A DNA stretch of 61,669 nucleotides, filler included, from Stramenopiles sp. TOSAG23-6 (lineage: Eukaryota): assembly GCA_900128565.1 (NCBI GenBank). It is 14 parts of 14 records of this genome, joined end to end, with 100 filler letters (N's around TTAATTAATTAA, not from the genome) between each part and the next. Parts side by side here need not be neighbours in the genome. Positions count along the whole stretch, not along the records: positions 52,991 to 57,284 come from LT637203.1; 13 more parts are not named here. One strand, written 5' to 3'. The notes beneath the pieces are model-generated. The model did not search any database. It saw nothing but the letters and a program-made list of their open reading frames with translations, and had not been told where the DNA came from. Made by a program: the position numbers and the translations under genes. Shown here in pieces: positions 4,439 through 57,935 of the stretch (position 1 is the stretch's first letter; each line of letters opens with the position of its first letter).

Positions 4439-5109
4439 CTCTGAACAGCTTCAACGAATGAGGTTGTACCTGACTTTGCGACAGTACCCAGATTTTCAAT
4501 TAGATCTTGCTTTGTCATTCCGATACCAGAATCAGTAATGGTTAACGTGCGTTTCTCTTCGTCAAATTTGATACGGATTTCAAGTTCCTCCTTGACAGCT
4601 AGAGCGTTTGGATCTTCGAGACCAAGGAAACGGATCTTATCAAGAGCGTCACTTGCGTTTGAGATAAGCTCGCGCAAGTAAATTTCTTTGTTCTTATAAA
4701 GCGAATTAATGATGATGTCCATCAGTCGACTTACTTCAGCCTGAAACTCAAAAGTTTCAGCTTCAGTTTCCATGGAGTCTTCCATTTCCTTAGTAATCTG
4801 TCATATGAAATATACAAAACGTCAAACAAAAATGAGTACGATGGAATAAAAATATACAATTCAGTCATAACTACATCAGTAGATTGAACTTGTAACACGG
4901 AAACATCTATTACAACTATTTTCGTGAGAATATGGGAAAGATAAAAGAGAGCTCAACCGACTAGGAACAATGTTAAAAAAGCTAACAAATTTACGTGGAA
5001 AACTTACTGCCGAAGCATCTACTGAAGCATCTTCTTCAGCATGGGCAACTTGCGTTGCTATGGCAAGAGCCATGAATGCGAAAATACAAAAGATATTTGA
5101 AATGCGCAT
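4439..5109 (-). CDS. HSP90B1: Endoplasmin / GRP94 (ER HSP90), 5' part
   Basis: Signal peptide [82 protein letters not shown]. Exons 5109-5008 and 4797-4439. Confidence 0.95.
4798..5007 (-). other. Canonical GT-AG spliceosomal intron (not of the repeat family)
   Basis: GCA|GTAAGT...TATGACAG|ATT, phase 0, 210 nt, no family core motif. Confidence 0.88.
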
Positions 5110-5473: not shown

Positions 5474-7467
<1,994 letters not shown>

Positions 7468-12965: not shown

Positions 12966-13321
12966 GCGGACTTGCAATGAAAAACTGGCTGAAACGACAT
13001 TAAATACTTCAATTAGATCCACCATCGATTGTTAGATATAGAATGGTATACAAATGTACAGCATCGTAGATTGTCGGCAAATTTTGTTGAAAGGATAATA
13101 TTGCTCAAAATTATTAAAAGAAACAAATGTACCAAAATTTAAAATAACAATTGATGTTTAGAACGTAAAATAAATTGTGTACAAATATGTCTTGTNNNNN
13201 NNNNNNNNNNNNNNNNNNNNNNNNNNNNNNNNNNNNNNNTTAATTAATTAANNNNNNNNNNNNNNNNNNNNNNNNNNNNNNNNNNNNNNNNNNNNTGAAA
13301 ACCTTTTTAGAAGATAATTAT

Positions 13322-13963: not shown

Positions 13964-14177
13964 ATATACATATACTTAAAATAGTTTTAAGTTCACAAAT
14001 CATTTCAAATATATAACTAGTGGTATGTTTATTTTCCTTCAACAAAAGAAATTGTTTAGGTCAGGAATTTCTTATGAAAAAAAAATTGAACAATAAATTT
14101 GAAATTAAAATTTTAGGAATTTCTTATGAAAAAAAAATGAACAATAAATTTGAAATTAAAATGAACTCATTTACACG

Positions 14178-18644: not shown

Positions 18645-20646
18645 CTAGTTTTGTGCAAATTCAGATAACATTTTGTGACAATCAGAATATTTTTTTCTTG
18701 CCACCGCACATGTATTTTGGAAAAATATTTTCAAAAAAAAAAACTTAAATTTGTTAGGTACAAAATTTCGTACGAAAAAAAATTCAAATTTGAAAAAAAA
18801 TAAAACATACTGAGCTGCGTCTTTGATTTCTTATTTAGGATGGTCATTGGACTCATTCCATCATTTGCTCGGTCATATAATGCATCTTTTTTTGTCATCT
18901 CTTTTGCTTTCCGCAACGCTTCTTTTGAAAATGGATAAAGAGAGATGTCAATAATATATTTTGGAAAAATATTTCAAAAAAAAAAATTTCAATTTGTTAA
19001 GTACAAAATTTCGTACGAAAAATAAATTCGATTTTTTTGTGAAAAAAAAAATAAAACATACATATCTGCCTTTTTATTTTCCACTTCTGTATCTTCAAAT
19101 ATTACTGGTGCAATCGTGGGTAAATAACGCATAAGTAGTTTCAAAATTTTGATATTTCCTTTTTCTGCTGCAACATGAAGCGCATTGTATCCATCAGTAC
19201 AAGTACTATGAAAAAATATTTTCAAAAAAAAAAACTAAAATTTGTTAGGTACAAAATTTCGTATGAAAAAATATAAATTTGAAATTATAATGAAAACGTA
19301 CGAGCTAAGCACACTAATGAACCAGATCGAAGTAAAATATCAACAATTTCATATTTTTCTAAACGAGTAGCAATATATAAAGGGCAATAGCCTCCCCTTT
19401 GTTGTATGTTTACATCCGCTCCGGCTCGAGCTAGCATTGCCACACAATTTTGATACCCACCAAGTACCGCAGCAAATATTGGGGTACATGTATTATGAAA
19501 AAAAAATTTAGTTAAAAAATTTGTTAGGTACGAAATTTCGTATGAAAAAAACAATTAGAAATTCATATCAAACGTACATCCACTTTTTTCATCAATAACG
19601 TTTATATTTGCAGAACTTTTGAGTAACCAAGATAGACAATCTCTTCTACCTCTGCGAGCAGATATAAAAAGGGCTGATATGCCATCTGTGCTTGTTTTCG
19701 TATCTATGTATTGTGAAAAATATTTTTTTTTTTTCAAATTTAACTTTTTTTTGTTTGGTATGAAATTTTGTAGTAAAAAAAAAAATCATGATGAAAACGT
19801 ACATATCAGCAGGAATATAACAATCCAGTAAAAATTTAACTACGTCAGCATGTCCATTTGATGCAGCGAGATATAACGCTGAGTGTCCATTGTCATCAGT
19901 AACATCAACTTTACTCCCCGCTTTTACTAAATATCGTATTGCACATATATTATAAAAAAAATTAAATTCGAAATTTGTTAGGTACAAAATTTCGTACGAA
20001 AAAAAAACAAAATTCGAAATTCATAATAAAAACGTACCTATCTTCCCCCGTGTAGCCGCAAGTAAAAAAGCAGTGTCCTCAGAATCCCCAACTCTTTGTA
20101 AGTGAACATGTATTGTGAAAAAACATTACAAGATTTTTGTTATTAGGTACAAAATTTTTCAAAAAAAAAAATAGACAAAAAAAAAAGAAAACGTACATCT
20201 GCACCAGCTTTTAAAAGTTCACGGACAGATTTTGAATTTCCTGATATTGCCGCGGCGTGCAAAGGTGTTGTATTGTTATATATCAGAGGTTTATCTACAT
20301 TTACACCCGCTTCAATTAATTTCCGCACACAATTCGACCCTGACAGACCTGTTGCTTTCCAACAAGCCAAAAATATTGGCGAAATACCATTTTCAAGAGA
20401 AGTATTTGGATCTCCACCTGATTTAATCAGTAGTGAAAGAGCATTGATGCGCCCCTGTGCAGCAGCTGTACAAATAGGCGTGGCCCCACACTCTATTGGC
20501 AAGTTTACACTAGCCCCACTATCTATTAAACGTCGGAGGGAATCACAATCTCCAAACTGAGCATTTGAATATACTTCTTCAGAATTTCTACTCAATATTT
20601 TATTACCCCAGTCATTGGCGGCAGAGCTTTGCTGGTTTGTGCTCAT
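18645..20646 (-). CDS. Ankyrin-repeat protein, 8 exons
   Basis: TPICTAAAQG, TPLHAAAISG, SALYLAASNGH, TPIFAAVLGG, NALHVAAEKG. Seven family introns: 20108-20196, 19945-20037, 19706-19802, 19488-19577, 19201-19301, 18954-19061 and 18710-18810. Confidence 0.9.
18710..18810 (-). mobile_element. Repeat-family intron, GT-AT
   Basis: TQL S|AVARKK in frame to the stop codon. Confidence 0.78.
18954..19061 (-). mobile_element. Repeat-family intron, GT-AT (identical to 21729-21836)
   Basis: KAD I|IDISLYP in frame. Confidence 0.75.
19201..19301 (-). mobile_element. Repeat-family intron, GT-TT
   Basis: Restores LA R|TDGYNALHVAA. Confidence 0.82.
19488..19577 (-). mobile_element. Repeat-family intron, GT-AT
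   Basis: Restores KSG C|TPIFAA; ATGTAC is duplicated at both junctions. Confidence 0.88.
19706..19802 (-). mobile_element. Repeat-family intron, GT-AT
   Basis: Restores PAD I|DTKTSTDGISALF. Confidence 0.85.
19945..20037 (-). mobile_element. Repeat-family intron, GT-AT
   Basis: Restores ATRGKI G|AIRYLVKAG. Confidence 0.82.
20108..20196 (-). mobile_element. Repeat-family intron, GT-AT
   Basis: Restores KAGAD|VHLQRVGDSEDTAFLLAA. Confidence 0.86.
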
Positions 20647-20958: not shown

Positions 20959-21979
20959 ATGTATACGCAGCATTTTCCAAGCCAAGAACAATATCAGCAA
21001 TATGGACACTCTCAACAATTTAGACAGCCTCAACAATATCAACAACAACAATTTAGACAGCCTCAACAATATCAACAACAACAATTTAGACAACCTCAAC
21101 AATATCACCAACAACAATTTAGACAGCCTGAACAATATCAACAACAACAATTTAGACAACCTCAACAATATCATCAACAACAATTTAGACAACCTCAACA
21201 ATATCAACAACAACAATTTAGACAGCCTCAACAATATCAACAACAACAATTTAGACAACAATATCACCAAACGCAATATGAAATTCAACAACAGCCGCTT
21301 AGATATCAGACACAATATGGAGATGTTGTTCTCCAGTCAAACGATCGATCTTTTTCTCGAAGCAAATCCCCATTTAGACCAGTCTCTGCGTCAAGCGATG
21401 AATCCATTAATTCTCAAAGCAAAAACGCTGTATGTTTTATTTTTTTTTTTAACAAAAAAATCGAATTTTTTTTTCGTACGCAATTTTGTACCTAACAAAA
21501 TTTTTTTGAAATATTTTCCAAAATACCTACAACTCAAGACAAGATGTCAGAAAAAGAATTTAAATTAGCAAAAACAGCAAAAGAAAGTATAGCTTCAGTA
21601 ATGGAACTAGTATCCAAATTTCGGAATAAGGATTTTTGTATAACGCAAGCAAGCAAAGCAAAATCTGCAGCAAATCATGTTGCTAAAGAAAGTGCTCTCT
21701 CCGCTTGTAAAGTGACGGAAGAAGCACTGTATGTTTTATTTTTTTTTTCACAAAAAAATCGAATTTATTTTTCGTACGAAATTTTGTACTTAACAAATTG
21801 AAATTTTTTTTTTTGAAATATTTTTCCAAAATATATTATTGACATCTCTCTTTATCCATTTTCAAAAGAAGCGTTGCGGAAAGCAAAAGAGATGACAAAA
21901 AAAGATGCATTATATGACCGAGCAAATGATGGAATGAGTCCAATGACCATCCTAAATAAGAAATCAAAGACGCAGCTCA
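20959..21979 (+). CDS. Gln-rich repeat protein, 3'-partial
   Basis: QFRQPQQYQQQ repeats; introns at 21430-21528, 21729-21836 and from 21980. Confidence 0.7.
21013..21270 (+). repeat. 33-bp coding tandem repeat, about 7.5 copies
   Basis: CAACAATTTAGACARCCTCAACAATATCAACAA. Confidence 0.95.
21430..21528 (+). mobile_element. Repeat-family intron, GT-CT, flanked CT/CT
   Basis: GCT|GTATGT...CCAAAATACCT|ACA gives KNA|TTQDKMSEK. Confidence 0.8.
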
Positions 21980-26706: not shown

Positions 26707-29667
26707 ATGATGAAGCGAATTTTTGCTTCAGTAAAGAAACATTCTTCATTTTTGACACCATGTCGTCAATTTACTACAGCACCACACGAAGATCTACGAA
26801 AGAACATAAAATTTTTGGGTTGGGCTTTAGGAACCTGTATACGAGATGAGTCAAAGGCTGCATATGATACTGTGGAAAAGCTGCGTGGACTGGCAAAAGA
26901 ATGGCGTTTGGAGAAGAAAGATCAGAAGAATGAAAAACTAAATGAAATTATCACTATTTCATCTTCGCTTTCTCCTGGAGCAATACATAAAGTTGCTCGC
27001 GCATTTACCCATTTTTTAGCTTTAGCAAACTCGGCTGAAGCGCATCATAGACTAAAACGAAGGCGCGAAGATGATTTGCAGATTGATAAAACTAATACTA
27101 ATACGCTTGAAGACTACCCCCAACCTCTAAACACGACGCTTGGTACATTTCAACAACTACTTGGTGTGCAAGAAAATAAATACACAACGGGCCCGATGGG
27201 AGTCGGAAAAGCAACAGCGTCACCAAAACAAATTTACGAAGCGCTTTGTACTCAGGAGGTTAACATTATTCTAACAGCACACCCGACCGAAGTGAATCGA
27301 CGTACGGTGGTAAGACGTCATATTGATATCGGGAACGCACTTGCTGCACGAGATCGGAAAGGGATGACATGGTTCGAAAAGAAAGAGGCTGAAGAGCAGC
27401 TTCGACGTCAGGTAGAGACTCTATGGTGGACAGATGAAATTAGAAGAGCAAAACCTACTCCAAACAAAGAAGCTGCTCACGGCATTGAAATCGCGGCAAA
27501 CAGCCTCTGGCCCGCTATTCCAAAAGTTTTAAGAAGAATTGATGATGAACTCTGTTCAATGACGGGAATTCAAAAGCCACTTCCACCTGATATAGCGCCA
27601 GTAAAGTTCGGCAGCTGGATGGGAGGCGACCGTGATGGAAATCCTAATGTTACGCCCAAGATCACTAGAGAAGTTGCAATCATGTCTCGTTTACGAGCTG
27701 CAAAATTAATCAAAGAGGCTATGATTGATTTACGCGATAACTTATCTTTGAGTGCAAGGAAAGCCACGCCCGAATTATTAGCCTTATTACCACAGAGGGA
27801 AGAGAATAATTCTCAAGAGCATTTAAAGCATCAACCCTATGCTCATCTATTTCATCATTTAGCCCAGCAATGCGATGCCACAATTTCGATTTTGGAGAGT
27901 GGCAGATTCTATCCATCTCAAGAAGACGATTTGATTCATAATGTTGAACCTTTATTGTCGAGCGAAGAGCTTGTAAATACATTAATGGTGGCTTATAATT
28001 CTCTCATAGAAGCTGGAAGGAATACTATTGCCGATGGTAAACTTCGTGATGTCATTCGCCAAGTTAAATGTTTCGGTCTCGCTCTTCTCCCCCTTGATTG
28101 TCGAAATGAGTCCGTACGGCATAGTGAAGCTCTTGATGCAATAACACGCTATTTAGGCATTGGTTCTTATTTAGATTGGGATGAAGATACACGAATGAGA
28201 TGGCTCTTGAAAGAGCTCTCAGAAAAACGTCCATTGCTGCCGACAAAAGGATTTAGCAATAATGATTGTTGGACCGACGGTCAACATTATGCTAAACTTG
28301 GCAGTATGTTTACCACTGTAGTTTGTGACACGCTCGGCACATTTGATATGATTGCCTCTTTACCTCCAGAGAATCTCTCAGCATATGTTATCTCGATGGC
28401 ACAGAATGCCTCTGATGTATTAGCGGTAAGACTGCTTCAATCCGAGGCTGGTGTAGCCGTTCCGATGCGAGTTGTGCCTCTTTTCGAGACTTTAGATGAT
28501 TTGCAAAGGGCTCCTACTATAATGCAATCTTTGTGGGATATTCCATGGTTTAAGGGCGACATTAATGCCAAACAAGAAGTCATGCTTGGCTATTCCGATT
28601 CTTCGAAAGACGCAGGCCGACTTGCTGCTGCATGGGCTCAATACATTGCACAAGAGAAACTAGTCAACTCTTCACAAGCTGTTGGTGTAGATCTAACATT
28701 ATTTCATGGCAAAGGAGGAACAGTTTCACGCGGTGGTGATCCATATGTATTCAGAGCCATATGCGCACAACCTTATGGTACAGTCAATGGTAAGTTTCGA
28801 ATCACAGAGCAGGGAGAGATCATCACACAAAACTATGGAAATCCTGGTATTGCAGAGCGACACTTAAATACATACATTGCTGCGATTCTTTACGAGAAAT
28901 TTTTACCAAAAGGAAACAGACAACCAAAAGAAGAGCACCGACTGCTCATGGATGCGCTTGGTGATCGGAGCTGTCAAGCCTATCGTCGCATTGTGCGTGA
29001 TGAGCCTGCATTTATTCCGTACTTTCGCTCAGCTACACCTGAGCTTGAAATCGCGGCTTTGAATGTGGGCTCGAGACCGGCAAAGAGGCGACCGACAGGA
29101 GGGGTAGAAACGCTTCGTGCAATACCTTGGGTTTTCTCTTGGGCACAGACAAGACTCAACTTGACTGCATGGTTAGGTATTGGTACAGCTTTTGAGTCCC
29201 TTGGTCCACTAGAACGCAAAACTTTACAAGACATGTACTCTCATTGGCCATGGTTCACCGCTCTTGTTGATGTTGTTGATATGGTTCTCGCGAAAACCGA
29301 AAGTGATATAGCCGAAAACTATGATCGACAACTTGTGGAGACACTAGAGAAGGGCGAGAGTACAGCTGGATTTGATGCCGATGAGCTTCTACATCTTGGT
29401 AAAACTCTTCGAAACGAATTAGCCGTAACAGAAAGAGAACTACTGTCTTTACGAGGATATAGCACGCCGCAAGAAGAAAATGCAACCTTGCAAAGCGCAC
29501 TCTTGGTACGCAATCCATACGTGGATCCATTGAATGTCTTTCAGGCTGAAGTACTTCGAAGACTTCGTGAAAATAAGTACAAAGACGAAAGCGAAAAGGC
29601 TGTTCTAGAAGATTCTTTGGTTATTTGTATTAATGGCATTGCTAACGGGCAGAAAAATACAGGATAA
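26707..29667 (+). CDS. PPC: Phosphoenolpyruvate carboxylase, probable mitochondrial presequence
   Basis: LTAHPTE, FGSWMGGDRDGNP, QEVMLGYSDSSKD, FHGKGGTVSRGG, LRAIPWVFSWAQTR, C-terminal KNTG; intronless. Confidence 0.98.
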   Translation: MMKRIFASVKKHSSFLTPCRQFTTAPHEDLRKNIKFLGWALGTCIRDESKAAYDTVEKLRGLAKEWRLEKKDQKNEKLNEIITISSSLSPGAIHKVARAFTHFLALANSAEAHHRLKRRREDDLQIDKTNTNTLEDYPQPLNTTLGTFQQLLGVQENKYTTGPMGVGKATASPKQIYEALCTQEVNIILTAHPTEVNRRTVVRRHIDIGNALAARDRKGMTWFEKKEAEEQLRRQVETLWWTDEIRRAKPTPNKEAAHGIEIAANSLWPAIPKVLRRIDDELCSMTGIQKPLPPDIAPVKFGSWMGGDRDGNPNVTPKITREVAIMSRLRAAKLIKEAMIDLRDNLSLSARKATPELLALLPQREENNSQEHLKHQPYAHLFHHLAQQCDATISILESGRFYPSQEDDLIHNVEPLLSSEELVNTLMVAYNSLIEAGRNTIADGKLRDVIRQVKCFGLALLPLDCRNESVRHSEALDAITRYLGIGSYLDWDEDTRMRWLLKELSEKRPLLPTKGFSNNDCWTDGQHYAKLGSMFTTVVCDTLGTFDMIASLPPENLSAYVISMAQNASDVLAVRLLQSEAGVAVPMRVVPLFETLDDLQRAPTIMQSLWDIPWFKGDINAKQEVMLGYSDSSKDAGRLAAAWAQYIAQEKLVNSSQAVGVDLTLFHGKGGTVSRGGDPYVFRAICAQPYGTVNGKFRITEQGEIITQNYGNPGIAERHLNTYIAAILYEKFLPKGNRQPKEEHRLLMDALGDRSCQAYRRIVRDEPAFIPYFRSATPELEIAALNVGSRPAKRRPTGGVETLRAIPWVFSWAQTRLNLTAWLGIGTAFESLGPLERKTLQDMYSHWPWFTALVDVVDMVLAKTESDIAENYDRQLVETLEKGESTAGFDADELLHLGKTLRNELAVTERELLSLRGYSTPQEENATLQSALLVRNPYVDPLNVFQAEVLRRLRENKYKDESEKAVLEDSLVICINGIANGQKNTG

Positions 29668-29791: not shown

Positions 29792-30145
29792 ATGTCTATA
29801 GAAGGCTTTTCATCTCAACATGGATATCGTATTTATTTGGATGTCAAGGGTACATGGATTGCAGAGGAGTGGACGTTTGTTGCTGGTGATGATGAGGAGG
29901 ATCGGTTTAATCAACGAGGAGGTTACTGGGTGATTAAAGATAAGAATAACCCTAAACAAAATGTAGATGAAAATATATCACAAAATATAACTCTTTATCT
30001 GAAGGATAGTTGTACAGCAAACAACACATCAAATAAACAAAAAGTAATCTGTACGTTATGGAATAACCCTAACCCTAATGAAAATTCTGATACATATCAA
30101 ATATTAGAATTTTTTGGTAAAAGTAGTGAAAATTATCATCCATAA
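29792..30145 (+). CDS. Hypothetical small protein (start uncertain)
   Basis: Open frame 29633-30145 with protein-like composition; first ATG outside PEPC at 29792. Confidence 0.4.
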   Translation: MSIEGFSSQHGYRIYLDVKGTWIAEEWTFVAGDDEEDRFNQRGGYWVIKDKNNPKQNVDENISQNITLYLKDSCTANNTSNKQKVICTLWNNPNPNENSDTYQILEFFGKSSENYHP

Positions 30146-38386: not shown

Positions 38387-38922
38387 TTTTCCACAATACA
38401 TGGAAGTTCTCTACAAACAAATCCAAGTGGTACAACAATTGAAATACATACAAACGGTACCAGAATACAAACAAATATAGATGGATCAAAAATTGCACAA
38501 ACTCCTGATGGGTCAACATTACAGATTAATACTAATGGTAATACAATTGAAACAAAACAAGATGGTACTCGAATACAAACAATGAAATCAGGAGTATGTT
38601 TTATTTTTTTTTTTACAAAAAAATCGAAATAATTTTTAATTTTTTTTTTGGTAAAAAAATTTTGTACCTAACAAATTTGAGTTTTTTTTTTTTGAAATAT
38701 TTTTCCAAAATAAAGGTACGCATTGAAGTTCGTCCTGATGGTAGTGAATTACAAACAAATTTGGATGGAACAAAGATCATTAGTGATACATCAGGTGATA
38801 GACAGACAGTCCTGCCCTGTGGGTGTACTCATATTTTGTTCTCTACAGGAAAGGAAAGACAAAATTTATGCCAAGAACATCTGAGAAGTGCAAACACTGC
38901 TGCAGAGTTACATCAATTATAA
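35856..38922 (+). CDS. Low-complexity protein with N-terminal PGPGxY (STPG/SHIPPO-like) motifs and C-terminal xDGTxI beta repeats (Tcp10/CENPJ-like)
   Basis: GPGAY, GPGSY; repeated PDGT/QDGT units; introns at 38220-38401 and 38594-38715. Confidence 0.7.
38220..38401 (+). mobile_element. Repeat-family intron (core degenerated to homopolymers), GT-AT
   Basis: Restores EVRPD|GSSLQTNPSG, matching the internal repeat EVRPDGSELQTN. Confidence 0.85.
38594..38715 (+). mobile_element. Repeat-family intron, GT-AG
   Basis: KSG|VRIEVRPDG; the AG sits in the same aligned position as the AT of other members. Confidence 0.88.
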
Positions 38923-43062: not shown

Positions 43063-43391
43063 CTTTAAGACATATAAGGATACCTACCTCCTTGAAAACA
43101 ATATCATTTTGCTATATTTTTAACGGAAATAAATTTTAACGTTTCAGTTTACAAACCTGCTTCAAAAAATCCGATGTTTTTTTTTTCGTCCCGGATCTGC
43201 AGTGATATCGGAGGAAGCGCATGCTCTTTAAAATCTCTGCCGAAAAAGTAAGAAAAAAGAAAAATTAGCGATGCAAACTATCGAAGTATAATTGTAAAAA
43301 TACTTTGAATAATTGTATATACCTACATTGAGTCTTACGATTTTGATTCACGTGCTATAATTCCTCGGAGGTGTGGTGACACGACACAGTC

Positions 43392-43820
43392 ATGGATCTC
43401 TCCTCGTCTTCCTCGTCGTCATCCTATGAGCCTCGGTCCTGGATTTCTTGGTTTACTGAACAGCAAAAGAATCAATTCTTTTGTATGGTAGATTACGAAT
43501 TCATTGAAAGTACATTCAATTTATATGGGCTTCGAAGTGATGTGTCGAGGTTTAGCTACTGTCGAAATATATTAACAGAAGAAATTGATAGTTCTTCTGA
43601 TGGTAGTACAGTACCAAGTGAATGGGAAAGTCCCCTTTGTGCTGATCTATATGGTCGAATACATGCTCGATTTATCAATACTGATGCCGGCCAAGCAACA
43701 ATGGAAGCCAAATATCTTAATGGTGATTTTGGTCAATGCCCTCGATTTGCTTGCAATGGCCAGAATGTTTTACCTGTCGGACTCTCTGACATTCCTAATC
43801 AGTCCACTGTGAAGGTCTAT
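43392..43820 (+). CDS. CSNK2B: Casein kinase II beta subunit, first exon
   Basis: SWISWF..NQFFCMVDYEFI..FNLYGL, LYGRIHARFI, DFGQCPR, LPVGLSDIP..TVKVY. Confidence 0.93.
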
Positions 43821-43909
43821 GTATGTTTTATTTATTTTTTTTTCGTACGAAATTTTGTACCTAACAAAATTTTTTAGATTTTTTTTCAAAATATTTTTCC
43901 AAAATACAT
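43821..43909 (+). mobile_element. Repeat-family intron, GT-AT (possibly chimeric)
   Basis: Near-consensus sequence; the downstream exon 43910-44031 is open but is not CK2-beta. Confidence 0.75.
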
Positions 43910-44029
43910 GTATTTGAGCAAAATAAGCAGTTCCCAGTGTCTCAACTAAAAGGTTACAAACGTGTGGAACAAAAGGGCCAATTACTATCTCTAATTCGTT
44001 TTGCTGACGACTTAGGGGTTTATCGTCTA

Positions 44030-44081
<52 letters not shown>

Positions 44082-44188
44082 TTTTTTTNNNNNNNNNNNN
44101 NNNNNNNNNNNNNNNNNNNNNNNNNNNNNNNNTTAATTAATTAANNNNNNNNNNNNNNNNNNNNNNNNNNNNNNNNNNNNNNNNNNNN

Positions 44189-45612
44189 AAATATTACATT
44201 TATTTTAGAAAAATATTAAAAAAAAAAAAAAACTAAAATTTGTTAGGTACAAAATTTCGTACGAAAAAATAAATTCGATTTTTCTGTAAAAAAAAATGTT
44301 AGGTACAAAATTTCGTACGAAAAATAAATTCGAAATCGAAAAAAATCGTTAGGTACAAAATTTCGTACGAAAAAAAAAATCGTTTTTTTCTGTAAAAAAA
44401 ATATAAAACATACACTATTATTTGTATTTGAAACTGTACCAAATTCAGTTTGTGTAGCTCCTGGTACGACATTTGTTAGTAAAATACCTTTGAGAGCATA
44501 TTGTATACAAAAATATTTCAAAAATGATTTTTTTTTGTTAGGTACGAAATTTGGTATGAAAAAAAAAATCAATTCTTTTTTTGTGTTTTTGTTTTTTTTT
44601 GTTTGGTATGAAATTTTGTATGAAATGTTTAATGTAGAATTAAACTATTAAGTAATGAAAAACGTACTAATTCATAATGTAATGATTGACAAATAGAAGT
44701 TGTAAATGCTTTTGTAGCTGCATATAGAGCATTTGTAGGTTGTGGACTAATTCCAACAATTGAACTAATAACAATAATTCGACCATTAGGGTTAGGGTTA
44801 TTTGTACAAAAAAAGTTTTGTACAGTTTTTGTTTTTGTTTTTGTTTTTGTTTTACTATCATTATTATTATTATTAGTAGTAGTAGTAGTACTACTACTAC
44901 TACTACTACTACCATTATCACTACAATCATCATTATTATCATTATTATTATTACTCCTTATCATATGATTTGCAATAGAATATAATAAATTCGTTAATGA
45001 AAAAACATTTAACGATAAAATTTTGTCGATTTCTTTCTTGTCTAAATCTAAAAATAATTTTCTTTTTGCAACTCCTGCAGCACAGACTAAAAGTACAATA
45101 TGACCTGTATTATTTGTTATTTTTTGTATATGGTTTTGTATATAAGAGCCAACATCAAAATCGGAGGTTAAATCAAGAGATAAATATGCTATATTTTGTG
45201 TTTTTTTTTGTGTTGTTCTTGAATTAGCAACGCATTTTGTATCTAATGAGTTTCCAACTTTTTGCTTATTTTTACACGTAAAAGTCAACTTGGATGATAA
45301 TAATTCGCTTTGAAGTTGTTTTAACTTTTCTGTACGTCTTGCAACCAACAGGATATTGAAACCTCTTTGTGACAAATCTCGAGCACATTCTAAACCTATA
45401 CCTGAACTCGCGCCTGTTACTACAGCCCATCCATTCATTGATGGTTCTAGTTTTTTAATTTTACGTAGATTGAATGAGTGTAAAGCATATGATACGACTT
45501 GAAGTATTGTAATGAACACAAGCATTCGTTTAATAAACACTGTAAACACAAGAGTATGATATATAGATGAATCAAACATGATTGCTATAATAGTACACGC
45601 CATGGCTAACAA
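44189..45612 (-). CDS. Short-chain dehydrogenase/reductase (KCR/17beta-HSD-like), partial
   Basis: [46 protein letters not shown] introns at 44498-44667 and 44198-44413. Confidence 0.92.
44198..44413 (-). mobile_element. Repeat-family intron with three tandem cores, GT-AT
   Basis: TTCGTACGAAATTTTGTACCTAAC x3 at ~50-55-nt spacing. Confidence 0.82.
44498..44667 (-). mobile_element. Repeat-family intron, GT-AT
   Basis: Restores LHYEL|ALKGI; the next AG is out of frame. Confidence 0.85.
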
Positions 45613-47382: not shown

Positions 47383-48342
47383 AACAATTGAACTTGGTTT
47401 TGAATTACTGTTTCAATCAAAATGGAAAGAGGCACAAATGGTAATGACAAAATATATAACAGGGCCTTTTTTAAAAACAAATCCATTTGCACATTTTATA
47501 CTTGGAATTTCGTCTTTATATTTAAGTGATTGGACATCTCATCATAGCCCTAACCCTAGAGAAAAAAAATCAAAAAAATCAAAAAACTCAAAAAAATCAA
47601 AAAATAATATTAATAAAAAATCAAGTAAAAATAGTAGTCATGATAGCGATTCAACAACAGATAATAGTTTTACCAATAGTGTTGATAGTAGTAGTACGAA
47701 TAGTGATTCAGATTCAGATTCAGATGATCAAATCAAAAACTTAAATTTTCATACAAAAAAAAAATCACAAAAAAAATCATCCACATCAAACCCTAACCCT
47801 AACCCTAACCCTAGACGATTGAAACGTTCGAATAAAAGTGTTTATAAAAACAGACAAAGAGCTTTAGAACATTTTTGTATAGCATTTAGTATCGTTCCTG
47901 AGAGTGATTTGTTTTGTACATTTATTATTCAAACATTGTTGGATAGACAGGTATGTGTTTAGTATGAATTTTTTTTTTAGTATGAATTTTTTTCAAAAAT
48001 TTTTTTTAATTTTCAAATTTTTTTTTTTTTTTTTNCTATGAAAANTTTCATACCTAACAATTACATTTTTTTTTATAAATATATCTTTACAAATACATGC
48101 TTTGGTTGAATGTGAAACTATATCGAAAAACATCTCCACCCAAAGAACAAAGAAAAAAAAGAATGTCAAAACTACAACAACAAAAATAAAAAATATTTTT
48201 GATTCATCAAATATAGTAAGGCTAGGGTTAGGGAATCAAAAATTGCATAAAATGGCAACAGTGGAAAAAATTGTAGAAGTCTATAAAGTTGTACTTTCAT
48301 TGTGTTGTAATGCACCGACAAATCCTAATTCTTGGCAGTTGT
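47383..48342 (+). CDS. Uncharacterised helical/TPR-like protein fragment (not kinesin; joined across an N gap)
   Basis: Exons 47383-47950 and 48099-48342 join in frame across GT-AT intron 47951-48098. Confidence 0.6.
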
Positions 48343-50755: not shown

Positions 50756-51493
50756 ATGAATTCTTCTGTCTCTGGGAAGGAACCAACGCAACAAATGAAG
50801 TCATTGCAACAACACCTCAAAATATTAAAAGATGAACTTGACGAGACTGAAAAATCTGTGTTTAACGCAGAAACTGTTTATTTACAGGAAACACAACTAG
50901 TAGGAAACATATGTCGTGGTTGGGAAGGTTTACTCGATCATCGTACATTAAAAGATAAAGAGCGATTTTCTAAAAGGCACAAGGTTCCTGATCAAGAAAG
51001 ACTTTTTTCATTTTCTTCATATACTGGTGGTTGTAATACTGCAAATATGACTGGTTTCAATGTTATACATTCAGTTTCCCCTTCTCGATCCACTTCACCT
51101 CTTCCTGGATATAGCTCTACATATAAAGCAAATAAAATCTTAAATAATTTTTCTGACTTTAAGCCTATAAAATTAGTAGAAAAAATTTTGGTTGAAGGAG
51201 GAGAGACAAACGAGGACGTTGAGAGTTCAGATGATGCAGAAGACAGTGAAGATAGTGAAGATGCGACAGATGAAACTGAAGAAGATGATGAGGAAGAGTC
51301 CGATGATATTAATGATGATGGAACAGATTATCAAGAAAATACTATTGATGAAGATGATATTGAAAGCTCGTCATCGACTATAAACCCTAACCCTAACAAA
51401 AAAAGAAATCGAAATAGTATGACGTCATCCAACTCAGATGAACCTGTTTTACTTCAAGGGAAACGTAAGAGAAAGCGAAAGGTATATAACTAA
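50756..51493 (+). CDS. EAF6: NuA4 histone acetyltransferase subunit Eaf6
   Basis: EKSVFNAETVYLQET..GNICRGWEG..ERLFSFSS; acidic tail and NLS. Confidence 0.88.
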   Translation: MNSSVSGKEPTQQMKSLQQHLKILKDELDETEKSVFNAETVYLQETQLVGNICRGWEGLLDHRTLKDKERFSKRHKVPDQERLFSFSSYTGGCNTANMTGFNVIHSVSPSRSTSPLPGYSSTYKANKILNNFSDFKPIKLVEKILVEGGETNEDVESSDDAEDSEDSEDATDETEEDDEEESDDINDDGTDYQENTIDEDDIESSSSTINPNPNKKRNRNSMTSSNSDEPVLLQGKRKRKRKVYN

Positions 51494-51789: not shown

Positions 51790-52677
51790 CTAAGTCCAAA
51801 AAAGATCTTCTTCTTGAATAAAATGAAATATTTGTTTTGATTTCCGAGATTTTTTTTTTTTTGTAGGGTAAGATTTCTTCTTTATATCATTTATATCAAA
51901 CTTTGCAGAATAAATCTTTCTTTTATTATTACCTGGTACTAGTATATTCGGAATTGAACAATCTGTACCATATTTTGTACCTAATGATTTTTGAAAAGCA
52001 ACTTGAAAATTTTGACATTGTACGTCTTCCAAAATATAACTTTTTCTAGCACTTGTAATACACTCTGTATCTAACGATTTATTGAATAGAGACTGACTTT
52101 TACAAGTACTTTTTTTTTTCGTTTTCAATAGTTTTTTTTTATTTCTTTTTTTTTTTGTTTTGTTTGGCCCGATTTTATTTTGTTTTGTACCAAATTTTGT
52201 ACCTAACGAGTTTAACATTGTTGAGGAAGGATCAAATGTATTTTTTTTAATAGTATTTAAAGATTCTGTGATGTGATATCGATTTTGCTGATCAAGTAAA
52301 AGATGTGTTTGATCATTTTTGTCATTCTCTGTGACTTTTATACCAAATTCCGTACCTAACGAATTTCGAATTTGTTCTGTGGCATGTCTCTTAAGGTGTT
52401 GGTGTAAAGAATATTTTTGATTATATATAATATTCTGTACTTGATTGTTTTGGAGCTGTATATGGGATGCTGTATCTTTATCTATCTTGCTGTGAGAATA
52501 TACTTGATGTTTGTTCATTTTTTCTAACTTTAAAAAGTATTTTTGTGCATGCGTCCGAATTTGTGTCAGAGATCTTGTCTTTACAATATTACCTATAAGT
52601 TTCCAATTTTTACCATATTGTTCAACGCCTCTCAAAAATAGTTGATGTTCATGAGCTGCCCAAGTTCCAGAATTCAT
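51790..52677 (-). CDS. SHAQKYF-class single-Myb transcription factor
   Basis: GTWAAHEHQLFLRGVEQYGKNWKLIGNIVKTRSLTQIRTHAQKYF. Confidence 0.93.
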   Translation of the reverse strand: MNSGTWAAHEHQLFLRGVEQYGKNWKLIGNIVKTRSLTQIRTHAQKYFLKLEKMNKHQVYSHSKIDKDTASHIQLQNNQVQNIIYNQKYSLHQHLKRHATEQIRNSLGTEFGIKVTENDKNDQTHLLLDQQNRYHITESLNTIKKNTFDPSSTMLNSLGTKFGTKQNKIGPNKTKKKRNKKKLLKTKKKSTCKSQSLFNKSLDTECITSARKSYILEDVQCQNFQVAFQKSLGTKYGTDCSIPNILVPGNNKRKIYSAKFDINDIKKKSYPTKKKKSRKSKQIFHFIQEEDLFWT

Positions 52678-52990
52678 TTGTAATTCTTGAATGTTACTTT
52701 TGTTTGTTAAATTTTGGCGTTGTTTACTGATGCTGGGGAAGAAAGAGTATTCACAATGAATTTCAATTTTTATCAGAGTATGAACCCGACATATAGTAGT
52801 AAATGAATCTCAATTGATTCAACAGAACTAAACCGTATTGTCTTCTCTGTGGTTATCTCAAAACAAAAGAAACAATTTGTAAATTGTAAANNNNNNNNNN
52901 NNNNNNNNNNNNNNNNNNNNNNNNNNNNNNNNNNTTAATTAATTAANNNNNNNNNNNNNNNNNNNNNNNNNNNNNNNNNNNNNNNNNNNN

Positions 52991-55900
52991 ATTTGCATCC
53001 AGACAAAACTGTCGGAGAAAAAAAATATTTCAAAAAAAAAAAAAAAATCGTTAGGTACAAAATTTTTTTACGAAAAAAAAAAAAAAAAAAAAAAAAAAAT
53101 TAAAAAAAAAATTTCAAATTTTTTTTTTTCAAAAAACATTTAGATAAGAAATTGAAAAAAAAAAAAAAAAACGTACGTGCACACGTATACCAAGTTGAAG
53201 CAGGTCTGTGTCTTTTAATACATTATTTTTCATTAAACATGGTGTTGAGTGTTTTTTGTCACAACACCATTGATACGCTTTTTCATTACTACGGTTGCGT
53301 CTAGACCCCTTTATATCAAAAACTCTATCGGGTACATGTTTTGTTGAAACATATTGAAAAATTTTTTTTACCAAAAAAAAATTTTTGTTAGGTATGAAAT
53401 TTTTTTACCAAAAAAAAAAAAAAAAAATTTTAAAAAATTTTAAAAAATTTTTGAATAATTTTTGAATAATTTTTGAAAAACGGACATGATTTTCAAATAA
53501 ATTTTTCATCACTAAAAAATGCATAGGGTCCCGGGTACCCAATGTAATTGTATGTAAACCACAAAAACGACATAATAAAGAATTTGTACCATGAATCATT
53601 CGTTGAGCATATGACTGCAACCATAAACCGGATGATTTCGTGTCTTTATCTACAATAGGGTTAGGGTTATAATTTTTTGTACCATTTTTTGTACTTAACA
53701 TCAATTCAACTTCTTGAAATGGAATTTTTTTAATTAAAAATTTTCGATCATTTGAATAAAAGAAAAAAGCACCACTACCAGCTTTGGTTGGTGCAACTGA
53801 CATTTGTTGTGAAAAATATGTATCAAATATAGTTGTTATTGTTATTGTTATTGTCTGGATGTAAATTTTTTTTAAAAAAATTTAAAAAAAAAATTTTAAA
53901 TTTTCAAATTTTTTTTTTTTTTTTTTAAATTTTGATAAAAAAAACGACATACATTGATGCTAAATGTCCTGTAAATAAATTTCGTACTAAATTTTCGTAT
54001 CCCACAGAATTAATATATTCAGTTGTGGATATTTGCCACTGTTGGCGTAATACATAAAAAACATGTGAAGCATAATCTTTGAAAAAACAGGTTTGTTCCA
54101 TTTCTAAATTCGAAATTGGTTCAACATTATCTTCTGCTGTACTTATTCTATATGTATCAACCGTAGCAAAATCATATGGCATAACTGGTCTTGAACCTTC
54201 ACATGCAGCACGTCGAGCTCCTATTTGTATTCCTTTCATAACGGATAACATCCGATGCCATCGGACATTTTATGTAAAGAAATATATTTTTTTTTTTTTT
54301 TACATTTTTATTAGGTACAAAATTTCCTATGAAAAAAAAATTAAAAAAAAAAAAAAAAATTCATCACCCAAACACAAAAAAAATTTAAAAAAAAAAAAAT
54401 CATACTATAAAACACATACATCACCAATTGGAATTATTTCAGCCTCTCTTTTTTGAAATATAAACTTTTTTTCCGTTTCTCCTAACCCTAACCCTAAATC
54501 TTCGAATTGTGTATTTGTAGAATCATCATTACTCATCAAGGATTCAAAAATGACGTCATCCATTGGAGAATGATGAGGATACTATATTGTAGAAAAATAT
54601 TAAAAAAAAAATCTAAAATTTTTTGTTAGGTACAAAATTTCGTACGAAAAAAAAATTCATACAAAAAAAAAATTAAAAAAAAATAAAACATACATGTTCA
54701 GTTCCACGTCTTCGTAAGGAACGTCGAACAGATTTCGTGACAACTGTATTTTTTTCATCTACATTTTTTCTATATTTCGTGTTTTTTTGTTGTTGTTTCG
54801 ATTCTTTTTCATCAAAGATAAATTCAAAATCGTCAGTTTTTTCATGATTCATTTGGAGCTCCTCTAATAACATAGTATGTAAAAAATATTTATTTTACAC
54901 TCAAAAATTATCGTTAGGTACATTATATATAATTGTCTAAATACAAATTCTCAAAATAAAAAAAATTCTCAAAAAAAAAAAAAATTCTCAAAAAAAAAAA
55001 AATCTCAAAAAAAAAAAAATTTTAAAAAAAAAAAAAATCCCAAAAAAAAAAAAATTTTTGGGTTTGAAATTTCGTACAAAACCAAAAAAAAAAAAAAAAA
55101 AAAAAAATGAAATTACTATATACAATATTTCAAAAAAATTTAAAAAAAAAATTTAAAAAAAAATTTAAAAAAAAATTAAAAAAAATTTGTTAGGTACGAA
55201 ATTTCCTATGAAAAAAATTATGATGTAAAAAATTACATTGGTGGTGATCGATGAGCACTGCATAACGTTAACTCTCGAGCTCTTTGTAATACCATGTATT
55301 TTGGAAAAATATTTGAAAAAAAAACTTAAATTTGTTAGGTACAAAATTTCGTACGAAAAGCAAAAAAAAATTTAAATTTGAAAAAAAATCGTTAGGTACA
55401 AAATTTCGTATGAAAAAAAAAATTAAATTTGAAAAAAAATAAAACATACATCTGATAATTGTCACGAGAATTTCGACGACTTCGATTTCGTGTTGACCCA
55501 AAACCAAATGTTTCTGTTGTATCATTTGATAGAATTGAACCATTCGTACTGTTTTCATTCAGTAGGGTTAGGGTTTCCGCGGCTGTTTCCCCAACAGTGC
55601 ATAAAAATGTAGTAAATAATTTTGAATGATTTGCTATAAAAACTACATTCAAAACAAGATCTTTGAAAGATTCACATTTCTCAAAATTATACAGTTCAAT
55701 CTGTTGCAAATGTTTTTCATTCTCTGAAATTTTTTTAGACATTTTTTTAGGGTTTTTAGGGTTTTTAGTTTTTTTTTGAAAATTTTTTTGAAAATTTTTT
55801 TTTTCCTCTGAAATTTTTTCGATTTTTTTTTGAAATTTTGTCTTTGAGTGTGGCATTGAAACACCAACAAGACCTCTAAGTACAATCGTACAACCAAGCC

Positions 55901-57034
55901 TAGAATCGCATCCTTCGAAACAAGCATACATGAAATGTTAAGAAAATATATATGTGTTTTTTGTTACGTACGAAATTTTTTTTTTTGAAATTTAAAAAAA
56001 AAAATTTCAAAAATTTTCAAAAATTTTCAAAAATTTTCAAAAATTTTTTTTTTTTGAAATTTAAAAAAAAAAAATTGAAATTACGACGTACATGTCGTCT
56101 TTATATCCCGGAATCAAATTATTTTTTACACCAAAAGAGTGCATTCTAAATAATGAACATGTACCCAGAGTTTTTCTAGCATCGGCTTTATCAACATTGA
56201 ATGTATGATAAATATTGAATTTTTTTTTTTTTTTGTTAGGTACAAAATTTACTACAAAAAAAATTGTAAAAATGTATAAAAAAATATTTCAATTTTTTTT
56301 TTGTTAGGTACAAAATTTCATATGAAAAAAACGTACATGATCTACATATGCCATAATTCGTGCTCCAGTCATTCTAGAGACCCAATTTAAAATTGACGGT
56401 TTCACATTAACAAAAACGGACAAACCTGCTTGATACAATAAATCTAAACCAAATTTCGAAACATTTTGACTTACTAGAATTAAATTCGCATGTAAGGATA
56501 TCATGTAAAAACAATATTTGTCATATTTGAAAAAAATATATTAGCTCATCTGGCTTAACATGTGAAAACAACTGAAAATCTTCAACATTTCAAAAAAAAA
56601 ATTTCAAAAAAAAAAAAATTTCAAAAAAAAAAAAATTTCAAAAAAAAAAAATTCAAAAAAAAACATACATGAAATTTTTGCTACTAAAATTTCTAAATAT
56701 TTTTCTTCTTGTTCTAATAATACATCCAATGACGTCATACATCCTTTTTTTCGTTCAAAATTTATCGGGCAGCTCAATAATGTATTTTGTAAAAATATTT
56801 AAAAAAAAATCGTTAGGTACAAAATTTCGTACGAAAAAAAATTGGATTTGAAAAAAAATAAAACATACATAGAATTTTTGGTCTTTCGATAAAGTTTTTC
56901 ATTTTTCTATGCGACAATTGTTTTCTAAAAATTACACCATATATTGAAAAAAATATTTTTAAAAAATTTGATTTTTTTTGTTAGGTACGAAATTTACTAT
57001 GAAAAAAAAATTACTTATGAAAAAAAATTTAAAA

Positions 57035-57069
<35 letters not shown>

Positions 57070-57176
57070 CGTAGTAATCAAATTTGAAAAACAATACAAT
57101 GAAAAGACTAAGGAATAAAAATACATTGATAACACAGCATTGAGATCGAATTCCACCTGGTATAGTTTTGACCCGT
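52991..57176 (-). CDS. FAB1: Fab1/PIKfyve-like phosphatidylinositol-phosphate 5-kinase (TCP1-like and PIP5K domains), internal part
   Basis: VKTIPGG, GVIFRK..HRKM, PKILLL, QEEKYLEILVAKI, LGTC, FEGC..LGCTIVLRG, FKDYA..F..LR, GSGAFFFYSNDRKFLIK, SLLCRFCG, FDIKGS, LKDTD. Twelve family introns: 56939-57124, 56780-56868, 56498-56668, 56196-56336, 55930-56091, 55294-55449, 54872-55236, 54582-54693 (AG), 54267-54419, 53802-53952, 53336-53485 and 53009-53176 (AG). Confidence 0.9.
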
Positions 57177-57233
57177 ATATAATGTGACTTTTTTTTTTTA
57201 AATTTTCATTTGCTTTGTTAGGTACAGAATTTA

Positions 57234-57284
<51 letters not shown>

Positions 57285-57384: not shown

Positions 57385-57935
57385 CGAATTTCACCACAAT
57401 TTAGTTTTATTACATTCGTATCATTTTTATTGTATATTTTAAGAGATCATTTGATGTGTACGTTTTTAAAATTGATTTTTTTACCTTTTTTGTTTTTTTT
57501 CCATAGAAAATTTTGTACTTACGATTTTTTTTAAATCAAAAAAAAAAATATATATTTTTTCACAAAACATCTTTGCTTGGTAGATCATTGTATATTATAC
57601 CAGCATGCCTCTTCAAACTTATATTTTTAATATGGTTCAGAAACTGTAAAGAAATCTGTTGTAATGCACAAAAAGAAGCACACCCTAAACCTATCCCTAA
57701 CAACCCTAACCCTAACATTTTGGATACACACGAAACAATAAAAATTAGAAAAAATCAAGAATATTCCATCAATTTTCGTGTAAATATCATAACATATGTG
57801 ATATATCCTCTGACGTCATTTTTATTAGGTATATGCACATCTTTTTATATCTGTAGTACTTCACCATGGTTATGCTTACAAAATATGATTTATTTATTGA
57901 GAGGCATTGGAAACTTTCAAGCACTGGAATGTTAG
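57385..57935 (+). CDS. Multi-pass membrane protein, 3' part
   Basis: Hydrophobic exons join across GT-AT intron 57458-57570 (DHLM S|LLGR). Confidence 0.6.

Follow-up and report, generated by a model that had tools for sequence, protein, structure and literature searches.

A repeated intron family that appears to end in AT, in a Fab1-like gene and other genes of a marine stramenopile

The stretch of DNA analysed here (the window) comprises 61,669 bases from Stramenopiles sp. TOSAG23-6. It is a chain of contigs of about 4.3 kb, connected by linkers of the form N44-TTAATTAATTAA-N44, and is not a single locus. One contig of 4.3 kb (52991-57284) bears, on its minus strand, a gene fragment with CCT/TCP-1 and PIPK domains, here named Fab1-like, which is divided into 13 exon pieces by introns of a repeated family. 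Removal of the 11 introns I1 to I11 by coordinates yields 12 exons and 721 codons with no stops, and removal of I12 (53176-53009) extends the frame by six open codons, to where the contig stops. Of the 12 complete introns, ten run from GT to AT and two (I8 and I12) from GT to AG. This coordinate splice confirms what a preliminary description of the same DNA had claimed, namely 12 family introns, 10 of them GT-AT, in a gene with CCT and PIPK domains, several of them inside conserved motifs. The seven joins listed in that description, CCVIN/GVIFRK, PKIL-L-LSCP, LVAKIS-S-LHANLILV, VDH/VDK, DD-M-YACFEGC, LAS-M-SVAPTKAGSGAFFF and FENH/VPDRVFDIKGS, were all reproduced. The exons (E) and introns (I) of the contig are given below with the evidence for each; lower-case letters before a slash are the exon end, and ranks refer to a 14-nucleotide (nt) matrix of 3' ends, for which 10 introns from other contigs served as the training set.

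52991..57284, minus: Fab1-like gene fragment, CCT/TCP-1 + PIPK, both ends off the contig (Pfam; 7k2v_A on E4 and E6; 721-aa frame)
57177..57284, minus: I0, 3' part only, the contig starting inside it; ends ..ACATTATAT; core TCTGTACCTAAC at 57228
57125..57176, minus: E1 (..RVKTIPGGIRSQCCVIN); coordinate splice
56939..57124, minus: I1, 186 nt, aat/GTATTT..TCAATATAT, GT-AT; matrix rank 1/203
56869..56938, minus: E2 (GVIFRKQLSHRKMKNFIERPKIL); coordinate splice
56780..56868, minus: I2, 89 nt, near-consensus copy, tat/GTATGT..AAAATACAT, GT-AT; matrix rank 1/106
56669..56779, minus: E3 (LLSCPINFERKKG..LVAKIS); coordinate splice
56498..56668, minus: I3, 171 nt, without family core, cat/GTATGT..ACATGATAT, GT-AT; matrix rank 1/188
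56337..56497, minus: E4 (SLHANLILVSQNVSKFGLDLL..SRMTGARIMAYVDH); 7k2v_A 218-263, E 7e-05; Cpn60_TCP1 profile 251-301
56196..56336, minus: I4, 141 nt, two cores, cat/GTACGT..ACATTCAAT, GT-AT; matrix rank 25/158
56092..56195, minus: E5 (VDKADARKTLGTCSLFRMHSFG..YKDD); coordinate splice
55930..56091, minus: I5, 162 nt, degenerate core CGTACGTAAC, cat/GTACGT..ACATTTCAT, GT-AT; matrix rank 1/179
55450..55929, minus: E6 (YACFEGCDSRLGCTIVLRG and a long low-complexity linker with telomere-like units); coordinate splice, 7k2v_A
55294..55449, minus: I6, 156 nt, two tandem family copies, gat/GTATGT..AAAATACAT, GT-AT; matrix rank 1/173
55237..55293, minus: E7 (VLQRARELTLCSAHRSPP); coordinate splice
54872..55236, minus: I7, 365 nt, two cores, aat/GTAATT..ACATACTAT, GT-AT; matrix rank 3/382
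54694..54871, minus: E8 (LLEELQMNHEK..RRRGTEH); coordinate splice
54582..54693, minus: I8, 112 nt, near-consensus copy, cat/GTATGT..ACAATATAG, GT-AG at the family's usual end; matrix rank 1/129
54420..54581, minus: E9 (YPHHSPMDD..EDLGLGLGETEKK..IIPIGD); coordinate splice
54267..54419, minus: I9, 153 nt, core GTACCTAAT, gat/GTATGT..ACATAAAAT, GT-AT; junction aa 458; matrix rank 4/170
53953..54266, minus: E10 (VRWHRMLSVMKGIQIGARRAA..GHLAS); coordinate splice, homologues
53802..53952, minus: I10, 151 nt, without family core, aat/GTATGT..ACAACAAAT, GT-AT; junction aa 562.7; matrix rank 1/168
53486..53801, minus: E11 (SVAPTKAGSGAFFFYSNDRKFLIKK..LVMKNLFENH), PIPK core; Pfam PIP5K 1.9e-17
53336..53485, minus: I11, 150 nt, core CATACCTAAC, cat/GTCCGT..ACAAAACAT, GT-AT; matrix rank 1/167
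53177..53335, minus: E12 (VPDRVFDIKGSRRNRSNEK..LQLGIRVH); coordinate splice, homologues
53009..53176, minus: I12, 168 nt, family core, cac/GTACGT..CTCCGACAG, GT-AG, provisional (six codons after it); from the sequence
52991..53008, minus: E13, first 18 nt (FCLDAN), cut by the contig end; from the sequence

Pfam profiles run against stop-to-stop frames of the minus strand identified Cpn60_TCP1 at 5e-05, which is below Pfam's own cut-off, and PIP5K (PF01504) at 1.9e-17. E4 aligned with the CCT domain of human PIKfyve (7k2v_A 218-263, E 7e-05), and the stretch CFEGC..GCTIVLRG of E6 aligned weakly with 7k2v_A 297-314 (E 0.74), while E2, E3 and E5, searched singly against solved structures and Pfam, had no match. 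The best 43 relatives of E11 among 1.8 billion representatives include EF-hand, ankyrin or GPCR (G protein-coupled receptor) PIPKs, the closest being P0001 (46% identity, E 2.6e-13), and none of the 18 kinase relatives scanned has a CCT domain. PDB matches of the kinase exon are to PIP4K, PIKfyve and PIP5K, all of them weak (E 0.07-0.6), and do not discriminate between the subfamilies. Word-index protein searches with E11 and E4 found no relatives, a metagenome scan with E11 gave 233 pattern matches and 0 relatives, and the 20-mer of the core had no exact match in metagenome contigs. The contig begins within I0, and a FYVE region would be upstream of it and off the contig. The gene is therefore labelled Fab1-like, on the basis of its CCT domain, rather than Fab1, because FYVE would be off-contig and the kinase kin are EF-hand, ankyrin or GPCR-PIPKs without CCT. 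Of the earlier assignment to Fab1/PIKfyve, the CCT and PIPK domains stand, but there is no FYVE domain on the contig. As a separate observation, the kinase exons (53486-54266, minus strand) are nearest to EF-hand-bearing PIPKs (P0001, P0003, P0013 and P0039) and not to known Fab1 kinases. Judging from these alignments, the union of a CCT domain with an EF-hand-PIPK-like kinase may be a lineage-specific architecture.

Members of the intron family are about 90-110 nt long and consist of GTATGT, the core CGTACGAAATTTTGTACCTAAC, a T-run and a terminal ..ACAATACAT. On the plus strand, which is antisense to the gene, the core reads GTTAGGTACAAAATTTCGTA; it has 52 matches in the 61.7 kb at three mismatches or fewer, versus 0.01 expected. 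Fifteen short copies from the Fab1-like gene, a methionyl-tRNA synthetase gene, an ankyrin gene and others give the consensus GTATGTTTTATTTTTTTT..ATTT.AATTTTTTTTTCGTACGAAATTTTGTACCTAACAAAT..TTTTTTTTT.AAATATTTTTCCAAAATACAT, and the invariant columns of their alignment are donor G1, T2, A3, G5 and T6, TAC-TAA of the core, and the terminal A.A.TA. The 12 introns of the Fab1-like gene have 13-18% G+C. Their donors are GTATGT (six), GTACGT (three), GTATTT, GTAATT and GTCCGT, so that 9/12 read GTAYGT, and the exon ends in AT ahead of the donor in 11/12. In 10/12, CTAAY is found 33-52 nt from the 3' end with a T-run after it, and ACA-N4-AT forms the last nine bases of most of them. AG stands in place of the AT of other copies in I8, in 38594-38715 (..AAAATAAAG) and in the copy with its core at 30408 (..AAAATACAG); for I8, an AT end 3 nt further (54579) is likewise in frame. 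AGs about 10 nt past the branch site are left unused in I6-I8.

It had been proposed that the interior of these introns decays and that the central palindrome has been lost in several of them. That picture is too simple, as the right half of the palindrome, GTACCTAAC, with its branch-site-like CTAAC, is kept in 10/12 introns, and the left half, CGTACGAAA, in 5/12; what is conserved in the interior is a branch-site-like splicing signal, not the palindrome. The same description regarded the system as old. Near-identical family copies occur in unrelated genes, however, and point to recent activity as well. No autonomous partner of the element was seen in the window.

One candidate for the machinery involved is the minor (U12-type) spliceosome, or a transformed version of it, which tolerates variable 3' ends, including GT-AT, and whose introns underwent a transposon-like expansion in Physarum. 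There, GT-AT is a recurrent non-canonical U12-type boundary, making up 17% of the non-canonical class according to the accessible text of bioRxiv 10.1101/2020.10.12.336362. Additionally, GTATGTTT fits six of eight positions of GTATCCTT, and CCTAAC resembles CCTTAAC. However, none of the 12 donors has the ATCC core or RTATCCTT, and GTATGT is a perfect U2-type donor. A branch-like motif 33-52 nt from the 3' end, combined with a long T-tract, is likewise a U2-type arrangement, whereas U12 sites, as that preprint's accessible text defines them, are close to the 3' end and without a tract. U11, U12 and U6atac were not found in the 61.7 kb searched (there was no Rfam match at all in the window). Removal by a minor spliceosome is thus regarded as quite improbable.

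Since open frames alone are weak evidence in AT-rich DNA, frame-blind tests were used to assess the intron ends. Under the 3'-end matrix, the frame-keeping acceptor was the top position among 106-382 in 8/11 Fab1 introns; the others ranked 3 (I7), 4 (I9) and 25 (I4), and in I4 the top position lies 5 nt upstream of the chosen end, out of frame. Boundaries were also placed by homology to the element, using the nearest upstream GTAYGT and the best downstream match to AAAATACAT. Removal of the span so defined gives the longest through-frame in most well-defined copies, for instance 62 at shift 0 versus 45/7 at shifts +1/-1, and similarly 65 versus 18/6, 59 versus 12/7 and 92 versus 29/22. Exceptions include 18810-18710 and 55449-55294, the measure being limited in the latter by the short E7. 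Homologues without these introns locate several junctions as well: those of I9 (..IIPIGD/VRWHRML..) and I10 (..GHLAS-M-SVAPTKAGS..) fall in ungapped conserved blocks in all four (P0001, P0030, P0013 and P0003), and that of I11 falls in a length-variable region with a 1-aa gap relative to P0001. The family, its anatomy and orientation, the restoration of frame and the exact junctions by homology are established by these data.

Other placements of the splice sites fared less well. Within 45 nt on either side, each GT-AT junction has one to five GY-AG alternatives that are in frame and stop-free. At I3, I5, I9, I10 and I11 these remove homologue-aligned residues; the alternative at I3 would take away residues aligned to 7k2v_A 218-263, and that at I5 would take away YACFEGC.., aligned to 7k2v_A 297-314. 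At I1 and I2 they break what we take to be CCT-family motifs. An all-GT-AG gene model, named in the preliminary description as the one that could overturn it, was rejected, as none keeps the conserved motifs and residues across the gene. Most junctions have a sliding ambiguity of 2-3 nt because exon and intron both end in AT. A 2-nt slide to an AT-AC reading was also rejected: the resulting 3' ends are inconsistent (AT-AC, AT-AT, AT-CA and AT-AA), and the slide is impossible where the exon end is not AT, as at dehydrogenase position 44667 (which ends in A) and at I12. GT..AT is the sole uniform reading of all junctions.

Three introns in other genes of the window were examined alongside those of the Fab1-like gene.

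6650..6758, plus: family copy in the methionyl-tRNA synthetase gene, cat/GTATGT..AAAATACAT/tgg; exact-junction control (solved enzymes)
44498..44667, minus: family-type intron in a short-chain dehydrogenase gene, tta/GTACGT..ACAATAT/gct (sequence; adh_short on exon A)
4798..5007, minus: intron from outside the family, GTAAGT..ACAG, HSP90/GRP94-like gene (the exon after it matches HATPase_c)

In the methionyl-tRNA synthetase gene, residue 62 of exon A and residue 1 of exon B correspond to the adjacent residues 316/317 of 4eg1_A, and also to 332/333 of 3kfl_A and 288/289 of 2csx_A. Exon A of the dehydrogenase gene stops at position 167/195 of the adh_short profile; exon B alone had no match, and the two exons had none in the PDB, with a threshold that was too strict in one search. 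The HSP90/GRP94-like gene, which carries a signal peptide, has a canonical GT-AG intron, and this type therefore coexists with the GT-AT family.

Core matches on the Fab1 contig are sense to the gene in 11/11 cases, and a looser pattern gives 14 sense copies there plus one chance-like match within an exon. Across the window, an orientation count based on open reading frames (ORFs), which is noisy in AT-rich DNA, gave 10 copies sense only, 6 antisense only, 13 both and 22 none (n=51). When the six antisense cases were read by eye, four were filter artefacts and two lay within a Myb-like ORF. AT is present on both flanks in about 17/24 copies read, which suggests a 2-nt target duplication, and one copy (21430-21528) has CT on both flanks. 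With the flanking AT counted, the terminal inverted repeats, ATGTAT/ATACAT, are about 6 nt long.

Comparative analyses favour, as the probable explanation, U2-type spliceosomal introns with a relaxed last base, which a marine stramenopile would have acquired in its nuclear genome from an introner of the miniature inverted-repeat transposable element (MITE) type. Under this explanation, a short non-autonomous mobile element would create introns by inserting in the sense direction, mostly at AT. With each copy would come a strong donor of the form GTATGT or GTACGT, then TACCTAAC as branch site, then a T-tract, and lastly the fixed box ACA-N4-AT at the 3' side; a 2-nt AT target duplication would supply the 3' end. 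The intron removed would run from the element's GT through the AT that follows its ..ATAC end, so that excision would take the element and one copy of the duplicated AT and restore the original frame. Because frame is restored at GT..AT ends, the splicing machinery would have to accept U as well as G at the last intron base, with A at -2 kept. Three points are inferred: removal at the RNA level by the major spliceosome, the origin of the AT as a target-site duplication, and present or past mobility of the element.

Several points limit this explanation or weigh against it. In-frame joins by themselves count for little, as there are many in-frame AT, AC or AG acceptors per junction in AT-rich DNA; the earlier assertion that the in-frame junctions are beyond chance is thus upheld by the frame-blind tests, which are strong, and not by in-frame joining alone. 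At I4, I6 and I7, GY-AG alternatives are compatible with homology (for I4, one GT-AG alternative, at -2 aa), although they need weak donors (GTTTTT, GTCGTC) or an AG about 10 nt behind the branch site. For the CCT-domain junctions I1, I2 and I4, the placement depends on motif continuity that we presume from general knowledge of the family and not on a tool alignment. The terminal inverted repeats are only about 6 nt long, and the exon end before GT is other than AT in about 7/24 copies, so that the idea of a target duplication is not clean. The stretch from branch site to 3' end contains three to nine further ATs, so that an AT cannot by itself specify the 3' site; the leading candidate for such a signal is the ACA box 9 nt upstream. 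Additionally, the family intron of a casein kinase II beta (CK2-beta) gene (43821-43909) is not followed, in any frame, by the 55 missing domain positions.

RNA data add to these difficulties. Two seawater metatranscriptome runs (X2 and X3) hold parts of the contig, as do run X7 and the DNA run X1, all as Logan contigs of low depth. There is no spliced joint among the rows listed for the X2 and X3 contigs, which cover some exons at depth 2-8; the joints listed are all repeat-driven and come from the DNA run, and X7 covers low-complexity stretches only. All three exon-intron borders reached by RNA-run contigs continue into the intron: X3 record 18 (54715-54920) reads 49 nt into the 3' end of I7, X2 record 9 reads 14 nt into the 5' end of I9, and X2 record 8 reads 6 nt into the 3' end of I9. 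This run-on is not as efficient splicing predicts; it could be due to DNA carry-over, pre-mRNA or a sister strain. Element bins, relative to exons, are also as deep in the RNA runs as in the DNA run. The preliminary description called the system functional, and intact frames and homology argue for this, but no spliced joint was among the RNA-run rows listed. Separately, summed contig depth over element cores (55295-55438 and 56735-56878) is about 270,000 in the DNA run, versus about 200-370 over unique exons, and 7,800-14,800 in the two RNA runs, versus 2-8 over exons. These values suggest that copies number roughly a thousand and that element sequence is plentiful in RNA libraries, although such depths measure neither copy number nor expression.

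The retention of intron ends in RNA-run contigs would also fit excision without the usual recognition of spliceosomal sites, either by pairing of intron ends, as proposed for Euglena and Amoebophrya, or at the DNA level in an expressed nucleus, like internal eliminated sequences. The ends of the introns are complementary over about 6 nt and are paired in centroid folds, AT alone cannot define the 3' site, and the flanking AT is reminiscent of the TA-bounded eliminated sequences of ciliates. However, a conserved RNA hairpin was rejected: RNAalifold found no consensus pairs in 15 copies, and the fold energies of single copies (n=3) were no different from those of shuffles (z +0.35, -0.61 and -1.24). 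The strictly conserved parts are the donor hexamer and the branch motif, which end pairing or DNA excision could dispense with. Similarly, the sense-only orientation on the Fab1 contig points to a strand-dependent process at the RNA level, the DNA run carries the introns, and stramenopiles are not known to have nuclear dualism. Mechanisms of this kind are considered very improbable.

A further alternative is that the elements are never removed, the gene being dead and riddled with insertions or an artefact of single-cell amplification or assembly. Consistent with this are the absence of spliced RNA among the listed joints, the CK2-beta gene that breaks off after a family copy, and an inverted duplicate, flanks included, inside one contig (18954-19061 on the minus strand and 21729-21836 on the plus strand). 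In contrast, every exon frame is intact over 721 codons, and the same elements occur in essential, well-conserved genes that are restored exactly, as in the methionyl-tRNA synthetase gene. The core copies of the Fab1 contig all lie in sense, the frame-blind tests indicate positions that respect codon continuity, and chimeric joins would not yield a family with conserved splice signals. We regard this alternative as barely credible, and U2-type introns derived from an introner as the better account.

Introner elements, or MITE-derived introns, of Micromonas and of the stramenopile Aureococcus anophagefferens were reportedly described by Huff et al. in 2016. Like the family described here, they are short, multi-copy, sense-oriented elements with their own splice signals, found in unrelated genes of marine protists; the duplicated target provides or completes one of the splice sites, and Aureococcus is a member of the same supergroup as the present host. 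According to the accessible portions of the sources cited here and below, those introners differ in having canonical GT-AG ends, clear terminal repeats and duplications of constant length (PMC7789003), whereas here most copies have a 3' AT, terminal repeats of about 6 nt and a 2-nt duplication that is not universal. The closest functional parallel, by analogy, appears to come from two larvacean tunicates, Fritillaria borealis and F. pellucida, whose non-canonical introns are transposon-derived, are removed by the major spliceosome and keep a T-rich tract (PMC13326754, PMC11282704). In Fritillaria, a YAY triplet before the 5' site also forms the last three bases of the intron (PMC13326754). Similarly, NAT here precedes the donor in 11/12 introns and ends 10/12. 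Among 3' endings in Fritillaria, AT is the commonest, with shares of 44% (F. pellucida) and 34% (F. borealis); the case is explained by duplicated U2AF subunits (PMC13326754, PMC11282704). Unlike F. borealis, whose 5' ends are non-canonical too (AG/AC and AG/AT dominate), the present family has a perfect GTAYGT, and the likeness is convergent because the host is a stramenopile and not an animal.

Introners of Amoebophrya (PMC7789003) also form repeated families with inverted and direct border repeats and non-canonical ends in a marine protist. They have no preferred dinucleotides and form hairpins of 8-20-nt inverted repeats, in an organism without a U1 protein; in contrast, the family described here follows a single GT..AT rule, its donor and branch site are both strong, and its folds show no significant hairpin. 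Physarum resembles it in mass intron gain, in inverted-repeat-like ends flanked by a 2-nt duplication and in having GT-AT among its boundaries (bioRxiv 10.1101/2020.10.12.336362), but its introns have donors of the U12 type (RTATCYTT) and place the branch motif 9-12 nt before the 3' end; the present introns share neither feature. Introners with non-canonical ends are thus already known from Fritillaria, Amoebophrya and others, as are canonical introners in the stramenopile Aureococcus. No report of GT..AT introns in MAST-type (marine) stramenopiles was found in the open literature searched, including the main texts of PMC5778133, PMC8163842, PMC12614181, PMC9860276, PMC12130899 and PMC9903769, and the words 'stramenopile' and 'MAST' are absent from the main texts of the introner surveys PMC9860276 and PMC12130899. 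For a uniform GT..AT family in a heterotrophic marine stramenopile, no precedent was found in these main texts and the open literature searched.

Other features of the window concern the host, the assembly and the fate of element sequence. A phosphoenolpyruvate carboxylase (PEPC) gene at 26707-29664 (plus strand) is an uninterrupted ORF of 986 codons with relatives in Tribonema, Chrysoparadoxa, Ectocarpus and diatoms at 45-48% identity, and the host is taken to be a stramenopile because these relatives are stramenopiles. On the same ground a tunicate origin, which the YAY-like triplet and the 3' AT had suggested by their likeness to Fritillaria, was rejected. The closest labelled PEPC protein, P0045 (875 aa), is identical outside seven internal gaps totalling 110 residues, and its label indicates MAST-3, a group of uncultured marine stramenopiles. 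The gaps look like introns that were falsely predicted when this genome, or one nearly identical to it, was annotated for public release. The CK2-beta gene (43380-44088, plus strand) matches Pfam positions 1-127/182 up to the donor at 43821, and no continuation of the domain was found in three frames between the family intron (43821-43909) and the contig end; the break may reflect a composite intron or a chimeric contig. At 18954-19061 (minus) and 21729-21836 (plus), one contig carries two family introns that are identical, flanking exon sequence included, but in inverted orientation. This pair, counted as one locus, shows that the assembly has artefacts and may be an inverted chimera of whole-genome amplification.

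Three antisense core copies (51966-51985, 52188-52207 and 52341-52360) lie inside a Myb-domain ORF (51790-52809, minus strand; Pfam 3.6e-11), where they translate as a peptide repeated three times (SLGTKFGTK, SLGTKYGTD and SLGTEFGIK). A similar ..LSTKNGTKN.. is present in exon E11 of the Fab1-like gene (53676-53700), adjoining an NPNP insert. Both peptides may be exonised fragments of antisense elements.

The NPNP insert belongs to a set of telomere-like repeats. The 12-mer AACCCTAACCCT has 19 matches in the window versus 0 expected, in (CCCTAA)2-4 runs of 12-25 nt (for example 320-333, 4057-4069, 6505-6518, 14358-14370, 30064-30078, 44786-44800, 47789-47813, 51383-51397, 53656-53669, 54481-54497, 55563-55575 and 57695-57716). 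Thirteen of the 19 are inside ORFs of at least 110 aa, of which 11 read N-P-N-P in the frame and strand of the ORF, one TLTL and one LGLG. The NPNP of the Fab1-like gene sits in a loop that is a gap in the homologues P0030, P0013 and P0003. These runs look like in-frame insertions, and the literature search gave no matching report of telomere-like in-frame inserts. In the T-rich non-coding region 11700-12720, which has four telomere-like 12-mers, TTAGGGTTAGGG runs occur no more than about 20-40 nt downstream of family cores (12033 and 12655), a hint that some variant of the element is connected with the telomere-like repeats.

A GT start with an AT end is a rare way of marking an intron and is overlooked by ordinary gene finders. 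If the reading is true, it would add one more independent example of transposon-derived introns spreading in a burst alongside a relaxed splice-site rule. The signature is unusually clean, since donor and branch site are canonical and the departure is confined to the last base, and 3' splice-site recognition is therefore directly testable (for example through U2AF, second-step factors, or pairing of G1 with the last base). It is possible, though we put it forward tentatively, that in an uncultured marine stramenopile, separately from the tunicates and the dinoflagellates, the major spliceosome evolved to take U routinely as the final base of introns (GU..AU). This would have let one MITE family colonise genes (about one copy per 350 bp here), each copy bringing its own donor, branch site and T-tract and taking its last two bases from the duplicated AT. 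If so, the 12-nt telomere-like in-frame inserts in exons might be repair scars of the same mobile activity, and standard gene finders would miss most introns of the organism. For this group, published single-cell assemblies have only about 2,700-3,300 predicted genes in 19-21 Mb, according to the accessible text of PMC5778133. Gene catalogues of abundant ocean protists may be badly fragmented, because GT..AT introns are not modelled.

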